IMG/VR virus record: IMGVR_UViG_2671181055_000004 | Strand: one strand, 5' to 3' | DNA: 39,417 nt | Source of the DNA: a virus | Taxonomy: Duplodnaviria; Heunggongvirae; Uroviricota; Caudoviricetes | Shown here: piece by piece, positions 1 through 39,417 of the stretch | Numbering within the stretch: the first letter of the stretch is position 1 | How the letters are laid out: the number at the start of each line of letters is the position of its first letter | Notes under the pieces: model-generated | Seen by the model: only the letters and a program-made list of their open reading frames with translations | What the model was told of the DNA's origin: nothing | Database searches by the model: none | Made by a program: the position numbers and the translations under genes

Positions 1-70
1 TCGGTTTACGGGAAACGGTAAACAGGGCGGCGAATGCTCTGCCATCGGACGGCACCGCCGTTGCCGCGAA
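1..70. repeat. Left inverted repeat of the invertible tail-fiber segment (window starts inside the crossover site)
   Basis: nt 1-70 is the reverse complement of 1250-1319 with one mismatch (position 38 vs 1282); weaker similarity continues to about 130 bp. Confidence 0.85.
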
Positions 71-362
71 TAGACTCGCCACCCCAAGAAATATTAATGG
101 GGTTCCCTTTGACGGGACGCAGGACATAAACATCACTTCTGGTATAACACAGCAGGATGCGGATTCCCGATATATCCAGGATATCAGGCTGGGAGCAGAG
201 AACAGGCAGGTAATGTACGGTGGGGCATATTACTCTGCGTACGGTAATGTTATGGCAGGCCTGCAGATTGACAGTAAAGTTGATGCTTCAAACGATTTTA
301 TAGCATTCAGACCCCTGCAAAAATTAGTCGGAGGTACATGGATTACGGTATCTCAGTTATAA
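1..362 (+). CDS. Tail fiber protein, variable C-terminal segment (Sv-like; 5' partial, fused to a constant part outside this contig)
   Basis: Open frame from position 3 to TAA at 360-362; translation ...ETVNRAANALPSDGTAVAANRLATPRNINGVPFDGTQDINI... shows tail-fiber repeat motifs; no start codon because the frame enters through the inverted repeat. Confidence 0.7.
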   Translation, partial: GLRETVNRAANALPSDGTAVAANRLATPRNINGVPFDGTQDINITSGITQQDADSRYIQDIRLGAENRQVMYGGAYYSAYGNVMAGLQIDSKVDASNDFIAFRPLQKLVGGTWITVSQL

Positions 363-413
363 ATAGTCAGTAAATAATATATTTTAAAACAGATTTATTT
401 CCAGGAGGATTTT

Positions 414-935
414 ATGGAACTAAAAAATATAACCCGTTATTATCCTGAAAATATGCCATATGGTAATAATGTTCAGTATTTCCAGAGTGAAGATGGTAAG
501 GATTTCTACGAATCCCTGCCATTATTCACCAAAAAATATAAACTTTGCATAACACCTGACAGCGGCGTTATCTGCTCAATATCACAGGACGCCTCGGCGC
601 TGTATCCTGCGGGGTTTTCTGTGGTTGAGGTCGATGAACTCCCTGAAGGCACGGATATTTCAGGAAACTGGAAGTTTGATAATGGCATAATCTCCCGTAT
701 TCCGGTTAACTACGCAAGAAAACTGGAAGCAATGCGCCAGTCATATCTTAATCAGGCATATGAAAAAATTAATGACTGGAGAACGGAGCTACAACTGGGC
801 ACCATCAGCGATGAAGACAGAGCAGCACTTACCCAATGGATGGCATACATCAGTCAGGTGAAGAAAATGGAACTACCCGCCATTAAAACAGAAGCTGAAT
901 TTAACGCCATTAAATGGCCTGAGCAGCCACAGTAA
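414..935 (+). CDS. Tail fiber assembly chaperone (Tfa / Mu U-like)
   Basis: 173-aa ORF directly after the tail-fiber C-terminus; C-terminal region resembles the Tfa family; lower GC than surrounding genes, typical of tfa. Confidence 0.8.
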   Translation: MELKNITRYYPENMPYGNNVQYFQSEDGKDFYESLPLFTKKYKLCITPDSGVICSISQDASALYPAGFSVVEVDELPEGTDISGNWKFDNGIISRIPVNYARKLEAMRQSYLNQAYEKINDWRTELQLGTISDEDRAALTQWMAYISQVKKMELPAIKTEAEFNAIKWPEQPQ

Positions 936-966
936 TAAAGAAGGCCGGAAGGCCTTCTGAATATCA

Positions 967-1317
967 TTATATACTTGCAGCCGTCACCCATGCTCCATTT
1001 AACAGATACTGCAACGGCCGGTAATACACGCCGCCGACGTTATCTGCCGTATTCTTACCGACATCCTGTACTTTAATTCCGGTAAGAACATTGCCGCCCC
1101 CCAGATTCAGATCCCAGCTTTCCCATGTTCCGGGCATATGTGCGGTCACCGACCCCAGTCTTATGGCGGTTACTGTTCCTGATGAGATAGTGATATCCTG
1201 CGTCCCGTCAAAGGGAACACCATTAATTGTGTGGGCATTTGCCAGCCTGTTCGCGGCAACGGCGGTGCCGTCCGATGGCAGGGCATTCGCCGCCCTGTTT
1301 ACCGTTTCCCGTAAACC
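967..1317 (-). CDS. Alternative tail-fiber C-terminal segment (Sv'-like), no own start codon, expressed only after inversion
   Basis: Minus-strand frame open from the inverted repeat (GLRETVNRAANALPSDGTAVAANRLANAHTINGVPFDGTQDITI...) to the stop at 967-969; N-terminal 23 aa are almost identical to the plus-strand Sv segment. Confidence 0.65.
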   Translation of the reverse strand, partial: GLRETVNRAANALPSDGTAVAANRLANAHTINGVPFDGTQDITISSGTVTAIRLGSVTAHMPGTWESWDLNLGGGNVLTGIKVQDVGKNTADNVGGVYYRPLQYLLNGAWVTAASI

Positions 1318-1319
1318 GA
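1250..1319. repeat. Right inverted repeat of the invertible tail-fiber segment
   Basis: Reverse complement of window 1-70. Confidence 0.85.
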
Positions 1320-1331
1320 GGTTTTCAGGAA
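1306..1331. promoter_or_regulatory. gix/hix-like recombination site (12-bp imperfect inverted half-sites flanking a 2-bp core at 1318-1319)
   Basis: TTCCCGTAAACC-GA-GGTTTTCAGGAA at the outer edge of the inverted repeat, next to the invertase gene; layout resembles Gin/Hin crossover sites (recalled, not aligned). Confidence 0.55.
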
Positions 1332-1396
1332 AGCCAGGATTAACTCTGTTTTATTCCTCATGCGACAATTCCGGCTTTTTATAATAAGGAAATCGT

Positions 1397-1969
1397 ATGC
1401 TGATTGGGTATATCAGGGTGTCAACAAATGACCAGAATACGGCGCTACAAAGAAATGCGCTGGAATGTGCAGGATGTGAGCTGTTTTTCGAAGACAGAAT
1501 AAGCGGTAAGACAAGGGAGCGTCCCGGACTTAAACGCGCATTAAAGCGACTCCGGCCAGGGGATACCCTGCTGGTCTGGAAACTGGATCGCCTTGGACGC
1601 AGTATGCAGCACCTTGTCCTTTTAACAGAAGAACTCCGGCAACGCGGCGTTAACTTCCGCAGCATTACGGACAATATTGATACATCCACTCCCATGGGAC
1701 GTTTCTTTTTCCATATAATGGGCGCGCTGGCGGAAATGGAGCGGGAACTCATTATTGAACGTACACGCGCGGGTCTTGCTGCTGCCCGTGCTCAGGGGCG
1801 TCATGGCGGCAGACCTCAGAAACTGACAGAGAAAGAGCGGGAGCAAATCGCCCGTTTGCTGGCTAATGGCGAGTCCCGTAAACAAATCGCACTGATATTT
1901 GATATTGGCCTTTCCACCCTTTATCGTTATTTTCCTGCCTCACCAGCTCCGTCACCAAAAGTACCGTGA
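1397..1969 (+). CDS. gin: Serine DNA invertase (Gin/Pin/Cin/Hin family)
   Basis: 190 aa, N-terminal MLIGYIRVSTNDQNTALQRNAL... with catalytic-serine region and C-terminal HTH (STLYRYF); close to my recall of Mu Gin; sits immediately outside the invertible segment. Confidence 0.9.
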   Translation: MLIGYIRVSTNDQNTALQRNALECAGCELFFEDRISGKTRERPGLKRALKRLRPGDTLLVWKLDRLGRSMQHLVLLTEELRQRGVNFRSITDNIDTSTPMGRFFFHIMGALAEMERELIIERTRAGLAAARAQGRHGGRPQKLTEKEREQIARLLANGESRKQIALIFDIGLSTLYRYFPASPAPSPKVP

Positions 1970-2054
1970 CGCTTTTTTGAATTTCCGCAAAACACATATT
2001 TTTCAGCGGTCGCTATTCTGACTCTGTTTAATTCAGAAACAGGCAGAAAAGACG

Positions 2055-4109
2055 ATGTCAGACTCCAAGTGGAAAATGCTCTCCGCCATGCCCGGAGAGT
2101 TTTCAGTCAAGGTTGCCGGTGGCACGGTGGCATTTATTGAAAGCCCTTTCCGCCCTTCGGGTAATAAAGGGGGGATCACCTTCGCAGACTGCGTGATCCG
2201 CTTCAGCACGAAAGAGCCATTATGGGTAATGCCGGTATCCGGTAATCCCAGTGCAGAAATCACCAGTTCAGGCGTGACTGGCATCATTCCAATCACATCT
2301 GACGTGGCCGGAACGCTCACGCCCTCCGACTGGAATGCACCGGATAACGCCGGGCCTTCCGGTAGCACGAATGGCAGCAGTTCAGAGCCGGAATATTACT
2401 TTGTTGTCATTCTCGCGGGTCAGTCAAATGGCATGGCCTACGGCGAGGGGCTGCCGTTACCGGATTCGTTTGACCGCCCGGACCCACGCATTAAGCAACT
2501 GGCACGCCGCAGTACGGTAACGCCCAACGGTACGTCGTGTACATACAACGACATCATTCCGGCAGACCACTGCCTGCATGATGTTCAGGATATGAGCGGG
2601 ATAAACCACCCGAAAGCTGATCTGGCAAAAGGCCAGTACGGGACTGTCGGTCAGGGGTTGCATATTGCCAAAAAACTGCTTCCCTATATCCCACAGAATG
2701 CCGGGATACTTCTGGTGCCCTGTTGTCGTGGCGGGTCAGCATTCACCACTGGAGCCGACGGCTCATTCAGTGAGGCCAGCGGTGCTTCCGCTGATTCTTC
2801 ACGCTGGGGGGCCGGTAAACCTCTGTATCAGGACCTGGTAAGCCGCACCAAAGTCGCGCTGGCGAAAAACCCGAAAAACAAACTTCTGGCTGTGGTCTGG
2901 ATGCAGGGAGAGGCAGACCTTGCCTCAGGAAGCCAGCAGCATAATAGTTTATTCACGGCCATGGTTCAGCAGTTCAGAACTGACCTGGCTCCGCTTGCTG
3001 CGCAGTGCGTGAGTGGAAATGCCACCACGGTGCCGTGGATTTGCGGTGATACCACGTATTACTGGAAAAACGCTGGCACCGATAAATATGAGGCAGTATA
3101 CGGTGGCTACAAAGGCAAGGAAGCACAGAAAATTTTCTTTGTACCGTTCCTGACGGATGAGAATGGACAGAGCACGCCAACGAATGCTCCGGCGGAAGAC
3201 CCGGATATTGTGGCTGTCGGGTATTACGGTGCAGCATCCCGAACCCAGGGCAGTTTTGTTTCGACACAGCGTGACAGCCATTTCAGCTCATGGGCACGCA
3301 GGGGCGTCATTTCAGACCGTCTGGCCTCAGCTATTATGCTCCATGCAGGGCGCACGGCTGAACTGATGCGTGGGCAGACCGTGACACCACCGGATGAGAA
3401 GCCGTCACCTGATACACCATCAAAACCGTCCACGCCACCCGCAGACACCACGACGATGAGTACGCTATTTGCTTACCGGGCATCTGAGTCTGAAGGACGG
3501 TTGACACCACAGGGTTGGGCTGCCGGAGGTGGCAAGGCTCAAATCGTGGATGATGCCGGAGCCAGCGGGGGTAAGGCAATGAAACTGACCAAGGAAACAG
3601 GAAGAGCCCCCTGGTACCTTGAGCATGATGCTGGTAATGGTGCGGACCTGCTGGGTAAAGGTGGTCTTGTCAGTTGTCGTTTTAAACTCGATGGCGCGCT
3701 TACGGCTAATCAGTACGCACTGGCGCTGTACTGGCCGGTTTCTGCCCTGCCGCAAGGGGTTACTCTGGAAGGAAATGCCGGTCATAACCTGCTGGCATCG
3801 TTCTACGTACAGAGCGATGCCACAGACCTTAACGTGATGTATCACAAAGGAAACACGGCGCAGAACACGAAGCTGGGGTCATTCGGCGCATTTAATAACG
3901 AATGGCATACGCTGGGCTTCCGTTTTGCCGGTAACAACAGTATTGAGGTGACGCCGGTCATTGATGGTAAGGACGGGACACCATTCATGCTGTCGCAGTC
4001 TCCGGTCGGCACGTTTACGGCAGACAAGTTGCGCGTGACCGATATCACTAAAAATGCGACTTACCCGGTACTGATTGACAGTATCGTGGTGGAAGTGAAT
4101 AACGCGTAA
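2055..4109 (+). CDS. SGNH/SASA-type carbohydrate O-acetylesterase with Pro/Thr-rich linker and C-terminal beta-sandwich-like domain (NanS-p-like sialate O-acetylesterase candidate)
   Basis: 684-aa ORF with RBS-like AGGCAGAAAAGACG before the ATG; motifs FVVILAGQSNGMAYGEG and VVWMQGEADLASG resemble sialate O-acetylesterase/DUF303 blocks; linker PPDEKPSPDTPSKPSTPPADTTT. Confidence 0.55.
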   Translation: MSDSKWKMLSAMPGEFSVKVAGGTVAFIESPFRPSGNKGGITFADCVIRFSTKEPLWVMPVSGNPSAEITSSGVTGIIPITSDVAGTLTPSDWNAPDNAGPSGSTNGSSSEPEYYFVVILAGQSNGMAYGEGLPLPDSFDRPDPRIKQLARRSTVTPNGTSCTYNDIIPADHCLHDVQDMSGINHPKADLAKGQYGTVGQGLHIAKKLLPYIPQNAGILLVPCCRGGSAFTTGADGSFSEASGASADSSRWGAGKPLYQDLVSRTKVALAKNPKNKLLAVVWMQGEADLASGSQQHNSLFTAMVQQFRTDLAPLAAQCVSGNATTVPWICGDTTYYWKNAGTDKYEAVYGGYKGKEAQKIFFVPFLTDENGQSTPTNAPAEDPDIVAVGYYGAASRTQGSFVSTQRDSHFSSWARRGVISDRLASAIMLHAGRTAELMRGQTVTPPDEKPSPDTPSKPSTPPADTTTMSTLFAYRASESEGRLTPQGWAAGGGKAQIVDDAGASGGKAMKLTKETGRAPWYLEHDAGNGADLLGKGGLVSCRFKLDGALTANQYALALYWPVSALPQGVTLEGNAGHNLLASFYVQSDATDLNVMYHKGNTAQNTKLGSFGAFNNEWHTLGFRFAGNNSIEVTPVIDGKDGTPFMLSQSPVGTFTADKLRVTDITKNATYPVLIDSIVVEVNNA

Positions 4110-4123
4110 GCAGGATAAAAAAA

Positions 4124-4158
4124 TGCCGCCGGTAAGGGAAAACAAGAAACCGGCGGCA
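4124..4158 (-). terminator. GC-rich hairpin with adjacent A/T tract (terminator-like when read on the minus strand)
   Basis: TGCCGCCGGT ... ACCGGCGGCA stem (10 bp) with a 15-nt loop, preceded on the plus strand by a run of A (a T-run 3' of the stem on the minus strand). Confidence 0.3.
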
Positions 4159-4253
4159 AAAAGATCGTTATATCCAAAGCAAAAAATGCAGTGCACCTTT
4201 TTACCTAACAGATATTACCGGTGTCAACACCATGTCAATAATTGGGAGGGATA

Positions 4254-4436
4254 ATGACATTTTTACAGCTTATTTTATTGTATTTCTGCACGGCAGTATG
4301 TGCGTTATATCTGGTGAGTGGTGGTTATAAGGCCATCAGAAATTATGTTCGCCGCAAAATTGAGGACGCAGCAGCTGAAAAACTCAGTAAAACAGCGCAG
4401 GTAACTCCGCTCCCAAAAGACCCGACCCAGCCCTGA
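4254..4436 (+). CDS. Small membrane protein (60 aa, one predicted TM helix, basic/charged tail)
   Basis: ATG at 4254 with GGGAGGG 4 nt upstream; MTFLQLILLYFCTAVCALYLVSGGYKAIRNYVRRK...; alternative TTG start at 4242. Confidence 0.4.
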   Translation: MTFLQLILLYFCTAVCALYLVSGGYKAIRNYVRRKIEDAAAEKLSKTAQVTPLPKDPTQP

Positions 4437-4471
4437 TTGCAGGGCTTTATTCCCGCATAAGGAGGATATAC

Positions 4472-4726
4472 ATGCCAGAAATTAAAGGCACCGTCACTGA
4501 AGACCTGGTAAAACAGGCACTGTATTCCGGTGAAGTAAATAAGTTGCTGAAAGCGCAGGTCCGCAAGGATTTTGAGGCACAAATCGACACTTACGTTGAT
4601 GAAGTGCTGGCAAAACTTATTGGGCCAGCAGTTGCGGCCAGTGATGCTGATAATGAGCCGAAAACCGACGCGCAGCCAGAGCAACCAGACCCGGCTCAGC
4701 CCGGAACTGACAGTACCATGATGTAA
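4472..4726 (+). CDS. Hypothetical 84-aa protein with acidic Pro-rich C-terminus
   Basis: Strong SD AAGGAGG 6 nt before ATG 4472; followed by a hairpin at 4733-4758. Confidence 0.5.
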   Translation: MPEIKGTVTEDLVKQALYSGEVNKLLKAQVRKDFEAQIDTYVDEVLAKLIGPAVAASDADNEPKTDAQPEQPDPAQPGTDSTMM

Positions 4727-4732
4727 CAATAC

Positions 4733-4758
4733 AAACCGGTGGTGTCCTCTGCCGGTTT
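4733..4758 (+). terminator. Hairpin after the 84-aa ORF (weak terminator candidate)
   Basis: AAACCGG-(12 nt)-CCGGTTT; the T-run is short. Confidence 0.3.
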
Positions 4759-4893
4759 GACACTAATGAAAACATCTTTGCCGCTATCCAGCCATATGTA
4801 ATCGCTGGATAGTATTTCGTATTCAGAAATATAGCTGCTTATGGAGCAGTCAATCCTGCTTCCCCATCCGGGCAGGCAAATGAACCGGTATCA

Positions 4894-5187
4894 TTAGTCC
4901 GATTCACGCTTTTGTAGAATCGTTCCCAGAATGCTATACAGCTCATTAGCCTGTTGCTCCATCATTGAGACGGAGGCTATACGGTGCAAAGTGATTTCAG
5001 GAGGTGGCACACCTCCATCTTCTTGCTGTGGAGGAAAAACATAAGATTTAATAAAAAAGTTGAAGCATATGAACTCTCCCGCACTCGAACTGTATTTGCA
5101 GGCATCTGAATAATCGGAAAAATAATCATTATAGATTTCCGCATTTTCAATCATTTTTCGATTTCTCGTCGTTACATGATTGTCCAT
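4894..5187 (-). CDS. Hypothetical 97-aa protein in a low-GC island, divergent from com/mom
   Basis: ATG at 5187 with AGAGG 6 nt upstream; surrounding 4740-5440 is visibly AT-rich compared with the phage backbone; no recognisable domain. Confidence 0.45.
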   Translation of the reverse strand: MDNHVTTRNRKMIENAEIYNDYFSDYSDACKYSSSAGEFICFNFFIKSYVFPPQQEDGGVPPPEITLHRIASVSMMEQQANELYSILGTILQKRESD

Positions 5188-5262
5188 AGCAGCCTCTTAC
5201 GCTGGCAATTAACCAATTGACTTCTATAAATTAGTTGATTTGTTTGCTTTGCGGTATTCAAA

Positions 5263-5270
5263 TGTACAAT
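5263..5270 (+). promoter_or_regulatory. Extended -10-like element (TGTACAAT) upstream of com/mom; possible Pmom-type promoter
   Basis: TGnTACAAT in the AT-rich intergenic region about 175 bp upstream of the com start; no good -35, as expected for an activator-dependent promoter. Confidence 0.25.
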
Positions 5271-5377
5271 CATTCAGCACTTATGCGTTACAGCACCGTT
5301 TAAAATTAGTGATCAAACTCATAAATTTTCGCTAATGACATTTCGTGTTATTTGTTGTATCAATTAAATAAATCAAA

Positions 5378-5400
5378 TCGATCGTTTTTGTCGATCGATT
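5378..5400. promoter_or_regulatory. Palindrome carrying two GATC (Dam) sites just upstream of com
   Basis: TCGATCG-tttttg-TCGATCGAT; GATC at 5380-5383 and 5393-5396. Confidence 0.4.
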
Positions 5401-5443
5401 GAGTGATAAAGATATCAACAACAAAGCAGGAGGTTATGCGGCC

Positions 5444-5644
5444 ATGTATCGAAACATACGGTGCCGACATTGTAACAAGCTACTGGCACGAGCCAGCTTC
5501 AGTTATCTGGAAGTTAAATGTCCGCGCTGTAAAACCCTCAATCAAATCACATCTCAGAGCGCCACAGAGCACCCCACATACACAAGGAAATCCTGTCGTG
5601 GGGAACAGAAAGCAAGTTACATCCCGTATCATCAGCACGCCTGA
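5444..5644 (+). CDS. com: Com-like zinc-finger translational activator of mom
   Basis: 66 aa, [34 protein letters not shown]... with CxxC...CxxC zinc finger; SD AGGAGG upstream; overlaps the downstream mom frame as in Mu. Confidence 0.75.
5572..5603 (+). promoter_or_regulatory. mRNA stem-loop sequestering the putative mom SD and GTG start (candidate Com-responsive translational switch)
   Basis: CCCCAC (5572-5577) pairs with GTGGGG (5598-5603); the loop contains AAGGA 9 nt upstream of GTG 5598. Confidence 0.45.
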
Positions 5645-6335
5645 ACTTATTCACTATAACGACAATATCGTCGGTTATGGCTCCCGTGAGTTACGGGTTG
5701 AGACAATAAGTTGCTGGCTGGCCCGGCTGGTCGTCGTCAATAAACATTACAGCCATCGTTTCGTAAATAATTCCTACCTTCATCTGGGCATATTTTCAGA
5801 ACGGGAGCTGGTTGGCGTAATGCAATGGGGTTATGCCCTTAATCCAAACAATGGTGCACGCGTCGTAACTGGCACGCAGAACCGCGAATATATGGAGCTT
5901 AACCGGTTATGGCTGCATGACTGTATGCCGAGAAACTCCGAATCAAGGGCAATCAGTTACGCGCTCAAACTAATCAGACAACTTTATCCGCAGGTGCAGT
6001 GGGTTCAGTCGTTTGCAGATGAGCGTTGTGGCTGTCTTGGTGTCGTGTACCAGGCAAGCAATTTTGATTATGTAGGCAGTCATGAAACAACATTCTATGA
6101 ACTTGATGGCGAGTGGTATCACGAGATTTGCAAGAATGCAATCAAACGAGGAGGACAGCGAGGTGAACATCTGCGGGCTAATATCGACAGAGCCAGTGTT
6201 CATAAATTCCGTCAGTTTCGTTACATCCGGTTTCTGGACAAGAGAGCCAGAAAACGCCTTAACACAAAGCTATTCAAAGTCCAGCCTTACCCAAAACCAC
6301 AAACAGTTAAAACTGGTTTGAAAGAGAGTGAATGA
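5598..6335 (+). CDS. mom: Mom-like DNA modification protein (start inferred at GTG 5598; the long upstream frame from 5403 is not a separate product)
   Basis: Long ORF ending at 6335 directly before the phage right end; overlaps the com 3' end in another frame; 245 aa from GTG 5598, close to my recalled size of Mu Mom (about 230-240 aa). Confidence 0.65.
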
Positions 6336-6370
6336 ACGCTTAAAAACTCATTCTAAAACTCAAAAGAAAA

Positions 6371-6411
6371 GCGCCGATTTAGTATCAAATAAGTTGCGTA
6401 TCGGCGTTTTT
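6371..6411 (+). terminator. Hairpin followed by T5 after mom (terminator candidate; the loop contains the innermost end repeat)
   Basis: GCGCCGAT ... ATCGGCG followed by TTTTT at 6407-6411; the loop is long (about 21 nt). Confidence 0.3.
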
Positions 6412-6463
6412 CAGCGGTATCAAATGAAATGCAAATCGGTATCAAAAAAATCGCCGCGCTATA
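6380..6463. repeat. Right-end terminal transposase-binding repeats (three GGTATCAAA-type sites) and phage terminus
   Basis: AGTATCAAATAAG (6381-6393), CGGTATCAAATGAAA (6414-6428), CGGTATCAAAAAAA (6437-6450); the same motif is repeated three times at the other phage end (38634-38797); terminal 27 bp align in register with the other end as an inverted repeat. Confidence 0.65.
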
Positions 6464-6548
6464 GACAGCCTAAGCGGCTGCTGACCTCCCTGACCATGCT
6501 GTAAATCTCTTTATCCTGGTTGTCACAGAATAAGCCCGGTAAAATACG
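6464..6548 (+). mobile_element. IS66-family element, 3' remnant of tnpB (host side of the insertion)
   Basis: 6466-6504 encodes QPKRLLTSLTML-stop, which joins in frame to the truncated TnpB ...GIDWR at 38810 once the shared GACA is counted once. Confidence 0.6.
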
Positions 6549-6798
6549 NNNNNNNNNNNNNNNNNNNNNNNNNNNNNNNNNNNNNNNNNNNNNNNNNNNN
6601 NNNNNNNNNNNNNNNNNNNNNNNNNNNNNNNNNNNNNNNNNNNNNNNNNNNNNNNNNNNNNNNNNNNNNNNNNNNNNNNNNNNNNNNNNNNNNNNNNNNN
6701 NNNNNNNNNNNNNNNNNNNNNNNNNNNNNNNNNNNNNNNNNNNNNNNNNNNNNNNNNNNNNNNNNNNNNNNNNNNNNNNNNNNNNNNNNNNNNNNNNN
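6549..6798. other. Assembly gap (250 N)
   Basis: Run of n characters. Confidence 1.
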
Positions 6799-38807: not shown

Positions 38808-39118
38808 TGTCGCCAGTCGATACCTTCCAGCAGCATCGCCAGCTGCGCCTGTGTAAGGAACACTTTGCCATCACGGGCTGACGGCCAGGCGAAGCGCCCA
38901 CGCTCCAGCCGTTTGGTCAGGAGGCACAGTCCGTCACTGGTGGACCACAGCAGTTTAACCTGACTGCCGCTGCGGCCCCGGAAAATGAAAACATGGCCGG
39001 ACATGGGATCGTCTTTCAGCGCCGTCTGTACTTTCGCAGCCAGGCCGTTGAAGCCATTTCTCATATCGGTGATACCGGCAACCAGCCAAATTTTGATCCC
39101 GGAAGGTAACGGGATCAT
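38795..39118 (-). CDS. tnpB: IS66-family TnpB (orf2), 3' end disrupted: last four codons and stop come from phage DNA
   Basis: MIPLPSGIKIWLVAGITDMRNGFNGLAAKVQTALKDDPMSGHVFIFRGRSGSQVKLLWSTSDGLCLLTKRLERGRF... is a typical IS66 TnpB sequence (recall). Confidence 0.8.
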   Translation of the reverse strand: MIPLPSGIKIWLVAGITDMRNGFNGLAAKVQTALKDDPMSGHVFIFRGRSGSQVKLLWSTSDGLCLLTKRLERGRFAWPSARDGKVFLTQAQLAMLLEGIDWRHITR

Positions 39119-39417
39119 CGCTTCAGTTCCTGTATCAGCAGAGTCAGGAGCTTTTCGCTGACATTGCCATTGAAGCGGAGCGTCCCGTGCCGGAACGTTA
39201 CCTCACAGCTGATACTGAGGGTTTTCGGGTCCTCTGCGAGCGATTCTGGCTGTTCGGCAGCTGCATCGAGAGTCACAGGAAGTAGCTGGGGGCTCTCTGA
39301 AGAAGGTAATAGCTGAGGTGTACTGGCAATAGCGGACACTACCATTTGTTCTTTTTTTAAGCAGCCATCTGATGATATTTTTCCCTGAAGGCTGCCGGGG
39401 AGATATTCCCCAGACGA
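38808..39417 (-). mobile_element. IS66-family element (tnpA-tnpB), interrupted in tnpB by the prophage
   Basis: tnpA/tnpB pair with overlapping stop/start (ATGA); tnpB is cut at ...GIDWR and its 3' end is found beyond the other phage end at 6464-6504. Confidence 0.65.
39115..39345 (-). CDS. tnpA: IS66-family accessory protein TnpA (orf1), possibly N-terminally longer
   Basis: 76-aa ORF translationally coupled to tnpB; assigned by synteny rather than by a recognised motif. Confidence 0.5.
   Translation of the reverse strand: MVVSAIASTPQLLPSSESPQLLPVTLDAAAEQPESLAEDPKTLSISCEVTFRHGTLRFNGNVSEKLLTLLIQELKR

Follow-up and report, generated by a model that had tools for sequence, protein, structure and literature searches.

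The sequence considered here, IMG/VR record IMGVR_UViG_2671181055_000004 (Caudoviricetes; 39,417 nucleotides, hereafter the window), holds a Mu-like prophage in which an island of accessory genes separates the DNA invertase gene gin from com and mom. The gin stop and the com start lie 3474 bp apart, and the largest gene between them encodes a 684-amino-acid (aa) protein related to NanS-p, the sialate O-acetylesterase of lambdoid and Shiga toxin (Stx) prophages. A preliminary description made from the bare letters had placed four open reading frames (ORFs) at 2055-5187, and all four were recovered there, as were the transmembrane helix and the strong ribosome-binding site that it read in two of the small genes. 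In E. coli JKHS016, a locus with 100% identity carries the same genes in its RefSeq annotation, the sole difference being that the minus-strand ORF starts at its second Met (5154, 86 aa). The features of the region are as follows.

~1-45 and 1285-1330: gix-like inverted repeats of the invertible tail-fibre segment, read in the sequence
1397..1969, plus strand: gin-type DNA invertase (Pfam Resolvase 1.6e-51 and HTH_7; PHROG 125), left border of the island
2055..4109, plus strand: Mu-type NanS-p-like sialate O-acetylesterase, 684 aa (Pfam SASA and DUF6645; PHROG 143, 1.7e-296; PDB 3PT5 and 6YP6)
2055..2270, plus strand: N-terminal domain of the esterase protein (N-domain), residues 1-72, predicted all-beta, found in Mu-like prophages only, not DUF1737
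2271..2378, plus strand: disordered Ser/Gly/Pro linker, residues 73-108 (predicted local distance difference test, pLDDT, below 40 with AlphaFold2)
2379..3374, plus strand: SGNH/SASA esterase domain, residues 109-440 (phmmer against NanS, 3PT5)
Residues 441-468 of the 684-aa protein: Pro/Thr/Ser linker preceding the lectin-like domain
3459..4109, plus strand: lectin-like jelly-roll domain (DUF6645), residues 469-684 (PF20350, 7.4e-68)
2385..4387, plus strand: block 87% identical in nucleotides to the nanS-p/DUF1378 region of the lambdoid locus L008 (blastn)
4124..4158: GC-rich hairpin past the esterase gene, 10-bp stem between A-runs (-21.7 kcal/mol, z -4.7 on folding)
4254..4436, plus strand: DUF1378 protein, 60 aa, one N-terminal transmembrane helix (PF07125, 1.2e-31; PHROG 494)
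4472..4726, plus strand: DUF826 protein, 84 aa, strong AAGGAGG ribosome-binding site (PF05696, 6.4e-16; PHROG 311)
4894..5187, minus strand: orphan ORF, 97 aa (86 aa from 5154 in RefSeq), in a variable slot of low guanine-cytosine (GC) content
5444-5644, plus strand: com (Zn_ribbon_Com, 1.3e-12), right border of the island
5598-6335, plus strand: mom (Mom PF25680, 1.6e-77), overlapping com, right border of the island

We regard this interval as a conserved accessory module of one family of Mu-like transposable E. coli prophages, a family with a member in O157:H7, and not as a recent private insertion; we place the probability of this reading at about 0.78. The cassette is ordinary in kind, being of the NanS-p type and already present in public E. 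coli genomes under the name 'DUF6645 domain-containing protein' (WP_001284083.1 for the 684-aa protein). What is new is the exchange of its N-terminal module, the confinement of that module to Mu-like backbones, and the role of the cassette as a recombination bridge between phage families.

Conservation of the island in Mu-like prophages

The backbone of the window is Mu-like by its Pfam matches (MuA, MuB, GemA, Mu portal, MuF, protease I, major head gpT and sheath). The family has the marks of Mu-like transposable phages, namely MuA/MuB, Mu-type head genes, gin with an invertible segment, com/mom, insertion at many sites and a short target duplication. Intact relatives run in the order baseplate, tail fibre, invertible segment, gin, island, com, mom, host. 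The host flanks differ from genome to genome, so the family is inserted at many sites, and this pattern indicates that the prophage transposes actively.

In all E. coli Mu-like relatives inspected, the order is gin, esterase, DUF1378, DUF826, a variable slot and com. The succession of gin, esterase, DUF1378, DUF826 and com holds in the O157 lineage, in four NCBI assemblies and in every IMG/VR locus that reaches com. The IMG/VR set comprises 34 contigs carrying the N-domain, and those that reach com read gin (or a remnant of it), N-domain, esterase, C-terminal domain, DUF1378, DUF826, com and mom; two other loci, L015 and L020, depart from this order past the esterase gene and are discussed below. 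The layout is kept in lineages about 30% apart in nucleotide sequence. The Mu-like prophage of O157:H7 strain F1273 belongs to a second lineage, with ~69% nucleotide and 58-67% aa identity to the window, and so does a Mu-like phage that has inserted into Stx phages (LC727881). The layout of this O157:H7 prophage (in F1273, and inserted in the Stx phages LC727881 and LC727895) is identical to that of the window: gin, a 679/680-aa esterase with the N-domain, DUF1378, DUF826, one minus-strand ORF and com. Its esterase is ~69% identical to that of the window in nucleotides and 67% in amino acids, and its variable slot holds a 64-aa Zn-ribbon ORF or a 154-aa hypothetical protein in place of the 97-aa ORF. 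Past the slot, sequence conserved with the O157 lineage restarts at 5335 (blastn against locus L002). The O157:H7 prophage is probably of the Sp18 type.

A recent private insertion was considered and rejected, because the order is conserved across lineages and no complete E. coli genome has this gin adjoining this com. When a synthetic query of the gin 3' end and the com 5' end was compared with complete E. coli genomes, none carried both within 0.8 kb. The island is present at 80% coverage or more in 27 of the 5426 complete E. coli genomes, whereas the nanS body occurs in 1291 of the 5426. DNA of the N-domain is detectable in 32 complete E. coli genomes, with at most three copies per genome, and the mom-attR end of the Mu-like family is present in 226 genomes. 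Together, these comparisons indicate that the island is an old and fixed feature of this family.

Phages Mu, D108 and SfMu have the same backbone order at their right end, with an invertible tail-fibre segment flanked by gix-like repeats, overlapping com and mom genes and transposition to many sites. However, gin lies close to com/mom in Mu and SfMu, and the gin-mom region of SfMu was amplified as 1.5 kb (PMC4406740), whereas the family of the window carries 3.5 kb of cargo between them. The preliminary description was thus right that the interval is missing from Mu, but its view of an unusual insertion does not stand, as the interval is neither unusual nor recent in the E. coli relatives.

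The genes of the island are under selection of different strength. Compared with the sister lineage represented by locus L004 (~89% nucleotide identity to the window), the ratio of nonsynonymous to synonymous substitution (dN/dS) is 0.04 for the N-domain, 0.10 for the esterase domain, 0.12 for the C-terminal domain, 0.14 for DUF1378 and 0.085 for DUF826. These five are under purifying selection (dN/dS 0.04-0.14), and the value for the 97-aa ORF is 0.40. GC content is 0.51-0.58 over the esterase gene and 0.40-0.50 over the small plus-strand genes. Its lowest values, 0.32-0.44, lie around the 97-aa ORF and upstream of it, in the sole compositionally distinct block of the island, and this agrees with the low-GC block first described there. 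No RNA family was found by an Rfam scan of 1-6548, and no island protein matched PADLOC or NCBIfam.

Domain structure and exchange with lambdoid prophages

From its domain matches, the large gene encodes a NanS/NanS-p-type SGNH esterase with a C-terminal lectin-like beta-sandwich. The SASA model (PF03629) matches residues 117-312 (1.5e-13) and residues 110-428 match E. coli NanS/YjhS (PDB 3PT5; phmmer E 1.8e-117). In that alignment Ser124 of the GQSNG motif (residues 122-126) and His409 of RDSHF fall on the catalytic positions of NanS, and a WMQGEAD motif lies at 282-288. The esterase proposed from the GQSNG and WMQGEAD motifs therefore holds, with its domain matched and its catalytic Ser and His kept. 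The Pro/Thr-rich linker and beta-sandwich proposed for the C-terminal part were borne out as well, residues 469-683 matching the C-terminal domain of NanS-p (PDB 6YP6; E 7.1e-98). Among the models suggested for searching, SASA and a lectin-like domain (DUF6645) were found and DUF1737 was absent. The chromosomal NanS has a homologous SGNH/SASA domain with the GQSN Ser and the block-V His aligned, but it is a single-domain protein of ~326 aa belonging to the nan regulon, without the N-terminal module and without the lectin-like domain. In the Mu-type esterases of loci L045-L048, the C-terminal domain is 40-46% identical to the lectin-like domain of the window, which suggests another carbohydrate-binding specificity on the same N-domain and esterase.

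The NanS-p proteins of lambdoid and Stx prophages (933W L0105/z1466; phi24B vb_24B_21/gp84; 6YP6) share the esterase and lectin-like domains with the Mu-type protein. They differ at the front, where lambdoid NanS-p carries DUF1737 and the Mu-type protein carries an unrelated all-beta domain of ~72 aa followed by a longer linker. The N-domain matched nothing in Pfam or NCBIfam, and PF08410 (DUF1737) was absent although it is present in the lambdoid relatives. With an alignment of six sequences, AlphaFold2 predicted four beta-strands in residues 1-72 (pLDDT 67-81) and disorder in residues 73-126; a model of the whole protein computed without an alignment (pLDDT 33) was discarded. Of all segments the linker at 73-108 varies most, with 85% aa identity compared with 97% in the N-domain, and constraint within the gene is strongest on the N-domain. 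A distant relationship between the N-domain and DUF1737 was rejected, since hhalign of the two N-termini pairs only residues 108-126. These 19 residues are the start of the esterase and lie outside the N-domain. The predicted folds also differ, DUF1737 consisting of a helix and three strands.

Every N-domain is joined to an esterase, and all stand in Mu-like contexts, spread over three lineages with identities as low as 30%. An exhaustive HMMER search of 1.84 billion representatives returned one relative, 30% identical, plus fragments of the same protein; it is likewise fused to SASA and follows gin in another Mu-like prophage, in a non-E. coli assembly. A word-index homology search with the N-terminal 113 aa yielded fragments only, and neither of two scans of species-representative genomes from GTDB turned up a copy. 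Occurrences were confined to E. coli, Shigella and one unidentified assembly (L014, GCA_037428405.1). This last is the most divergent Mu-like lineage, with an N-domain 30% identical to that of the window, and is not E. coli-like by megablast. It has two extra small ORFs (58 and 87 aa, at 7426-7910) between gin and the esterase gene, and its contig stops inside the latter.

The body behind the N-domain has a different history. Residues 109-684 are 91% identical to the DUF1737-type lambdoid protein P0046 and 65% identical to the 933W protein, and nothing aligns before residue 109. The block shared with the lambdoid locus L008 begins exactly past the N-terminal module and ends within DUF1378. The esterase and C-terminal domains of the window are 92% and 96% identical to lambdoid alleles, compared with ~70% to the O157 Mu-type protein; taken as a whole, the body is 91% identical in amino acids and 87% in nucleotides to lambdoid alleles, against ~67-70% to the other Mu-type lineage. 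In the lineage of the window the N-domain hardly varies, whereas the junction and body alternate between variants that mirror lambdoid alleles. The cassette probably keeps exchanging with lambdoid copies while the N-terminal module remains with the Mu-like backbone.

Two loci point to exchange through the esterase gene itself. In L015 (754-6045; IMGVR_UViG_2617270951_000022), gin and a Mu-type esterase are followed by lambdoid-type genes in the order DUF1378, DUF826, P21-type holin, DUF1327, lysozyme and Rz. This arrangement indicates a natural recombinant of a Mu-like and a lambdoid prophage through the esterase gene. L020, with the same pattern of matches, is probably another such hybrid.

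Although the settings differ, the small neighbours are also shared. Lambdoid nanS-p lies between Q/stx and the holin gene S, whereas the gene of the window lies between gin and com/mom of a transposable phage and, unlike its lambdoid counterpart, is not behind a Q-antiterminated late promoter. DUF1378 and DUF826 stand downstream in lambdoid nanS-p loci as they do here, and both have been noted between nanS-p and S (PMC10462455). The order in L008, for example, is Q, methylase, nanS-p, DUF1378, DUF826-like and holin, with the DUF826-like protein 45% identical to that of the window and in the same position. DUF1378 follows the esterase in all Mu-type loci, in 933W (53% identity to the window copy) and in other lambdoid loci. 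A tblastn search of the phage collection with DUF826 found only two Mu-like inserts and was probably insensitive for so short and low-complexity a protein; pairwise and Pfam tests show that lambdoid DUF826 homologues do exist. The preliminary description had called the partners of the esterase unknown and proposed checking whether they accompany it elsewhere. DUF1378 and DUF826 are the usual neighbours of lambdoid nanS-p and do accompany the esterase in other prophages, and only the 97-aa ORF is lineage-specific.

That ORF is missing from many sister loci. Its homologues occur in E. coli and Shigella only (79-100% identity) and always in this slot. It had no match in Pfam, PHROGs, NCBIfam or PADLOC, which gives no support for a known defence gene, and it looks like an independent and replaceable small cargo gene.

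Neighbouring features of the window

The window consists of two pieces joined by 250 N at 6549-6798, and its right piece stands as the reverse complement of the native order. At ~6463, from where the genomes diverge, the prophage has its right end. One half of a single ISEc8 (IS66-family) tnpB gene lies at 6464-6548 and the other at 38808-39313, and the 4-bp overlap of these flanks is the target duplication. The break lies at the left gix-like repeat, inside which the window begins, and at the constant part of the tail-fibre gene, which lacks ~150 nucleotides when compared with relatives. The island lies wholly in the left piece and is unaffected by either the break or the N join.

The invertible segment (1-1330) holds two alternative tail-fibre C-termini, at 1-362 on the plus strand and ~967-1320 on the minus strand, and a single tail-fibre assembly gene (414-935); either orientation of this gene is seen in related loci. 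In several relatives (L004-L006, at ~9150-9400, as well as L019, L020, L024, L027 and L033), gin is reduced to its last ~70 nucleotides, which fixes the segment in one orientation, and the esterase island is kept. On the other side of the island, a palindrome containing GATC (5376-5400) lies ~45 bp upstream of com and resembles the region through which Dam methylation controls the Mu mom operon. Some O157-type copies carry a C5 DNA methyltransferase instead of mom: in L002 (10420-11472), and also in L038 and L043, com (98% identical) is followed by a 350-aa C5 DNA cytosine methyltransferase.

The hairpin at 4124-4158 has a T-tail on the minus strand only. It reads as a minus-strand intrinsic terminator, although no minus-strand gene ends there, and it falls within the block common to lambdoid prophages. 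The hairpins after nanS and after DUF826 have no U-tail on the plus strand. A stretch upstream of the esterase gene is conserved between both Mu-type lineages, and a search by eye of the nanS upstream, com upstream and putative late-promoter regions gave no convincing shared motif.

Possible function and significance of the cassette

The 684-aa protein has three parts, in which a predicted all-beta N-domain precedes a NanS-type SGNH esterase that would remove 9-O-acetyl groups from sialic acid and a lectin-like domain that would bind carbohydrate. The esterase and lectin-like parts, together with DUF1378 and DUF826, form the cassette that in lambdoid prophages, those with stx among them, is bounded by the late promoter or stx on one side and the holin gene on the other. 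Like lambdoid NanS-p, the Mu-type protein is prophage-borne and without a signal peptide, and its N-terminus, read directly, has no hydrophobic signal sequence; the substrate would thus be reached only at cell lysis, by an enzyme that is either free or attached to the virion. The likely substrate is the O-acetylated sialoglycans of gut mucus, where the Mu-type enzyme may de-O-acetylate the sialic acid Neu5,9Ac2, and de-acetylation would open the sialic acid to sialidases and to the Nan pathway of E. coli. The NanS-p proteins of lambdoid and Stx prophages are experimentally active on Neu5,9Ac2 and on mucin glycans and support growth on Neu5,9Ac2 (reviewed in PMC8065619).

Several observations weigh against reading the island as such a functional module. 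Enzyme activity is documented for the lambdoid alleles only (PMC8065619). The block-V motif published for NanS and NanS-p is RSSH or RASH (PMC10462455), and in the Mu-type protein it is RDSH, with the His kept. Promoter-like sites stand at chance level (4 against 3.5 expected), and no canonical terminator delimits the unit or separates gin from the esterase gene, leaving read-through from gin, a promoter of its own and a Mu late promoter as possible sources of expression. The 97-aa ORF, being weakly constrained, may be unrelated to the esterase.

The role of the N-domain bears on a further possibility. In a 2026 preprint that is not peer reviewed (10.64898/2026.04.10.717836), DUF1737 of phi24B gp84 is described as a capsid-decoration domain that sits as a hexamer on the central hexons, with gp84 being processed at its linkers. 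The module replaced in the Mu-like prophage is exactly this domain, and the break falls at a linker. It is therefore possible, though on balance doubtful, that the Mu-specific N-domain tethers the esterase-lectin body to the virion, on capsid hexons or on some other structural surface. The particles would then attach to mucus sialoglycans and remove their acetyl groups, and cleavage at the linkers might later release the body. The strong constraint on the N-domain (dN/dS 0.04), its invariable fusion to an esterase in three Mu-like lineages and the free exchange of the body, but not of the N-domain, with lambdoid alleles are consistent with such an anchor. However, the gene lies outside the structural operons, after gin, and the N-domain model, which is of moderate confidence and built from six sequences, had no fold match among known decoration and virion proteins. 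DUF1737-type esterases are also present in a P2-like myovirus, so that this anchor is not strictly bound to a single type of capsid. Somewhat more tentatively still, the ~72-aa module could be a new virion-attachment domain by which Mu-like particles carry the same exchangeable esterase-lectin payload as DUF1737 phages. If this is true, unrelated temperate coliphages share a plug-in system, composed of a backbone-specific anchor and a common mucus-active body, that decorates their virions with a sialoglycan-modifying enzyme.

The enzyme might instead serve adsorption by acting on O-acetylated surface polysaccharides such as O-antigen or K1 polysialic acid, opening access to a receptor or blocking re-adsorption in the manner of SGNH-esterase tailspikes. 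The gene does adjoin the tail-fibre and invertible host-range region, its product includes a lectin-like domain, and the possibility has been raised for NanS-p (PMC8065619). Nevertheless, we consider this very improbable: lambdoid alleles with activity towards free Neu5,9Ac2 and mucin have almost identical catalytic and lectin domains, Pfam and PHROG scans found no tail-fibre, tailspike or baseplate-attachment motif, and the body is common to phages whose tails are quite unlike one another, an observation that speaks against specificity for a receptor. It is also unlikely, if less so, that the three conserved genes act as one unit in which the membrane protein DUF1378 and DUF826 are needed for release, processing or timing of the esterase. 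Two unrelated phage backbones have the trio in the same order, purifying selection acts on both small genes, and the genes are separated by short gaps (144 bp from esterase to DUF1378 and 35 bp from DUF1378 to DUF826) with no canonical plus-strand terminator between them. Recombinant NanS-p, on the other hand, is active alone (literature summarised in PMC8065619), 933W has DUF1378 and no detectable DUF826, and the small genes of lambdoid phages stand directly before the holin gene and could belong to the lysis cassette.

NanS-p has been discussed almost only as cargo of Stx and lambdoid prophages through which pathogenic E. coli gain the O-acetylated sialic acids of mucus as a nutrient, and we found no paper treating both nanS-p and Mu-like phages. 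As a conserved module of Mu-like prophages, the island adds a second, transposable phage family with the same enzyme body and a different conserved front module, which widens the reservoir of these genes to include commensal and environmental E. coli. The shared cassette also explains one route by which DNA is exchanged and rearranged between Mu-like and lambdoid prophages. Together with the report of DUF1737 as a capsid anchor, it offers a clean natural experiment on the purpose of the N-terminal module in these enzymes.

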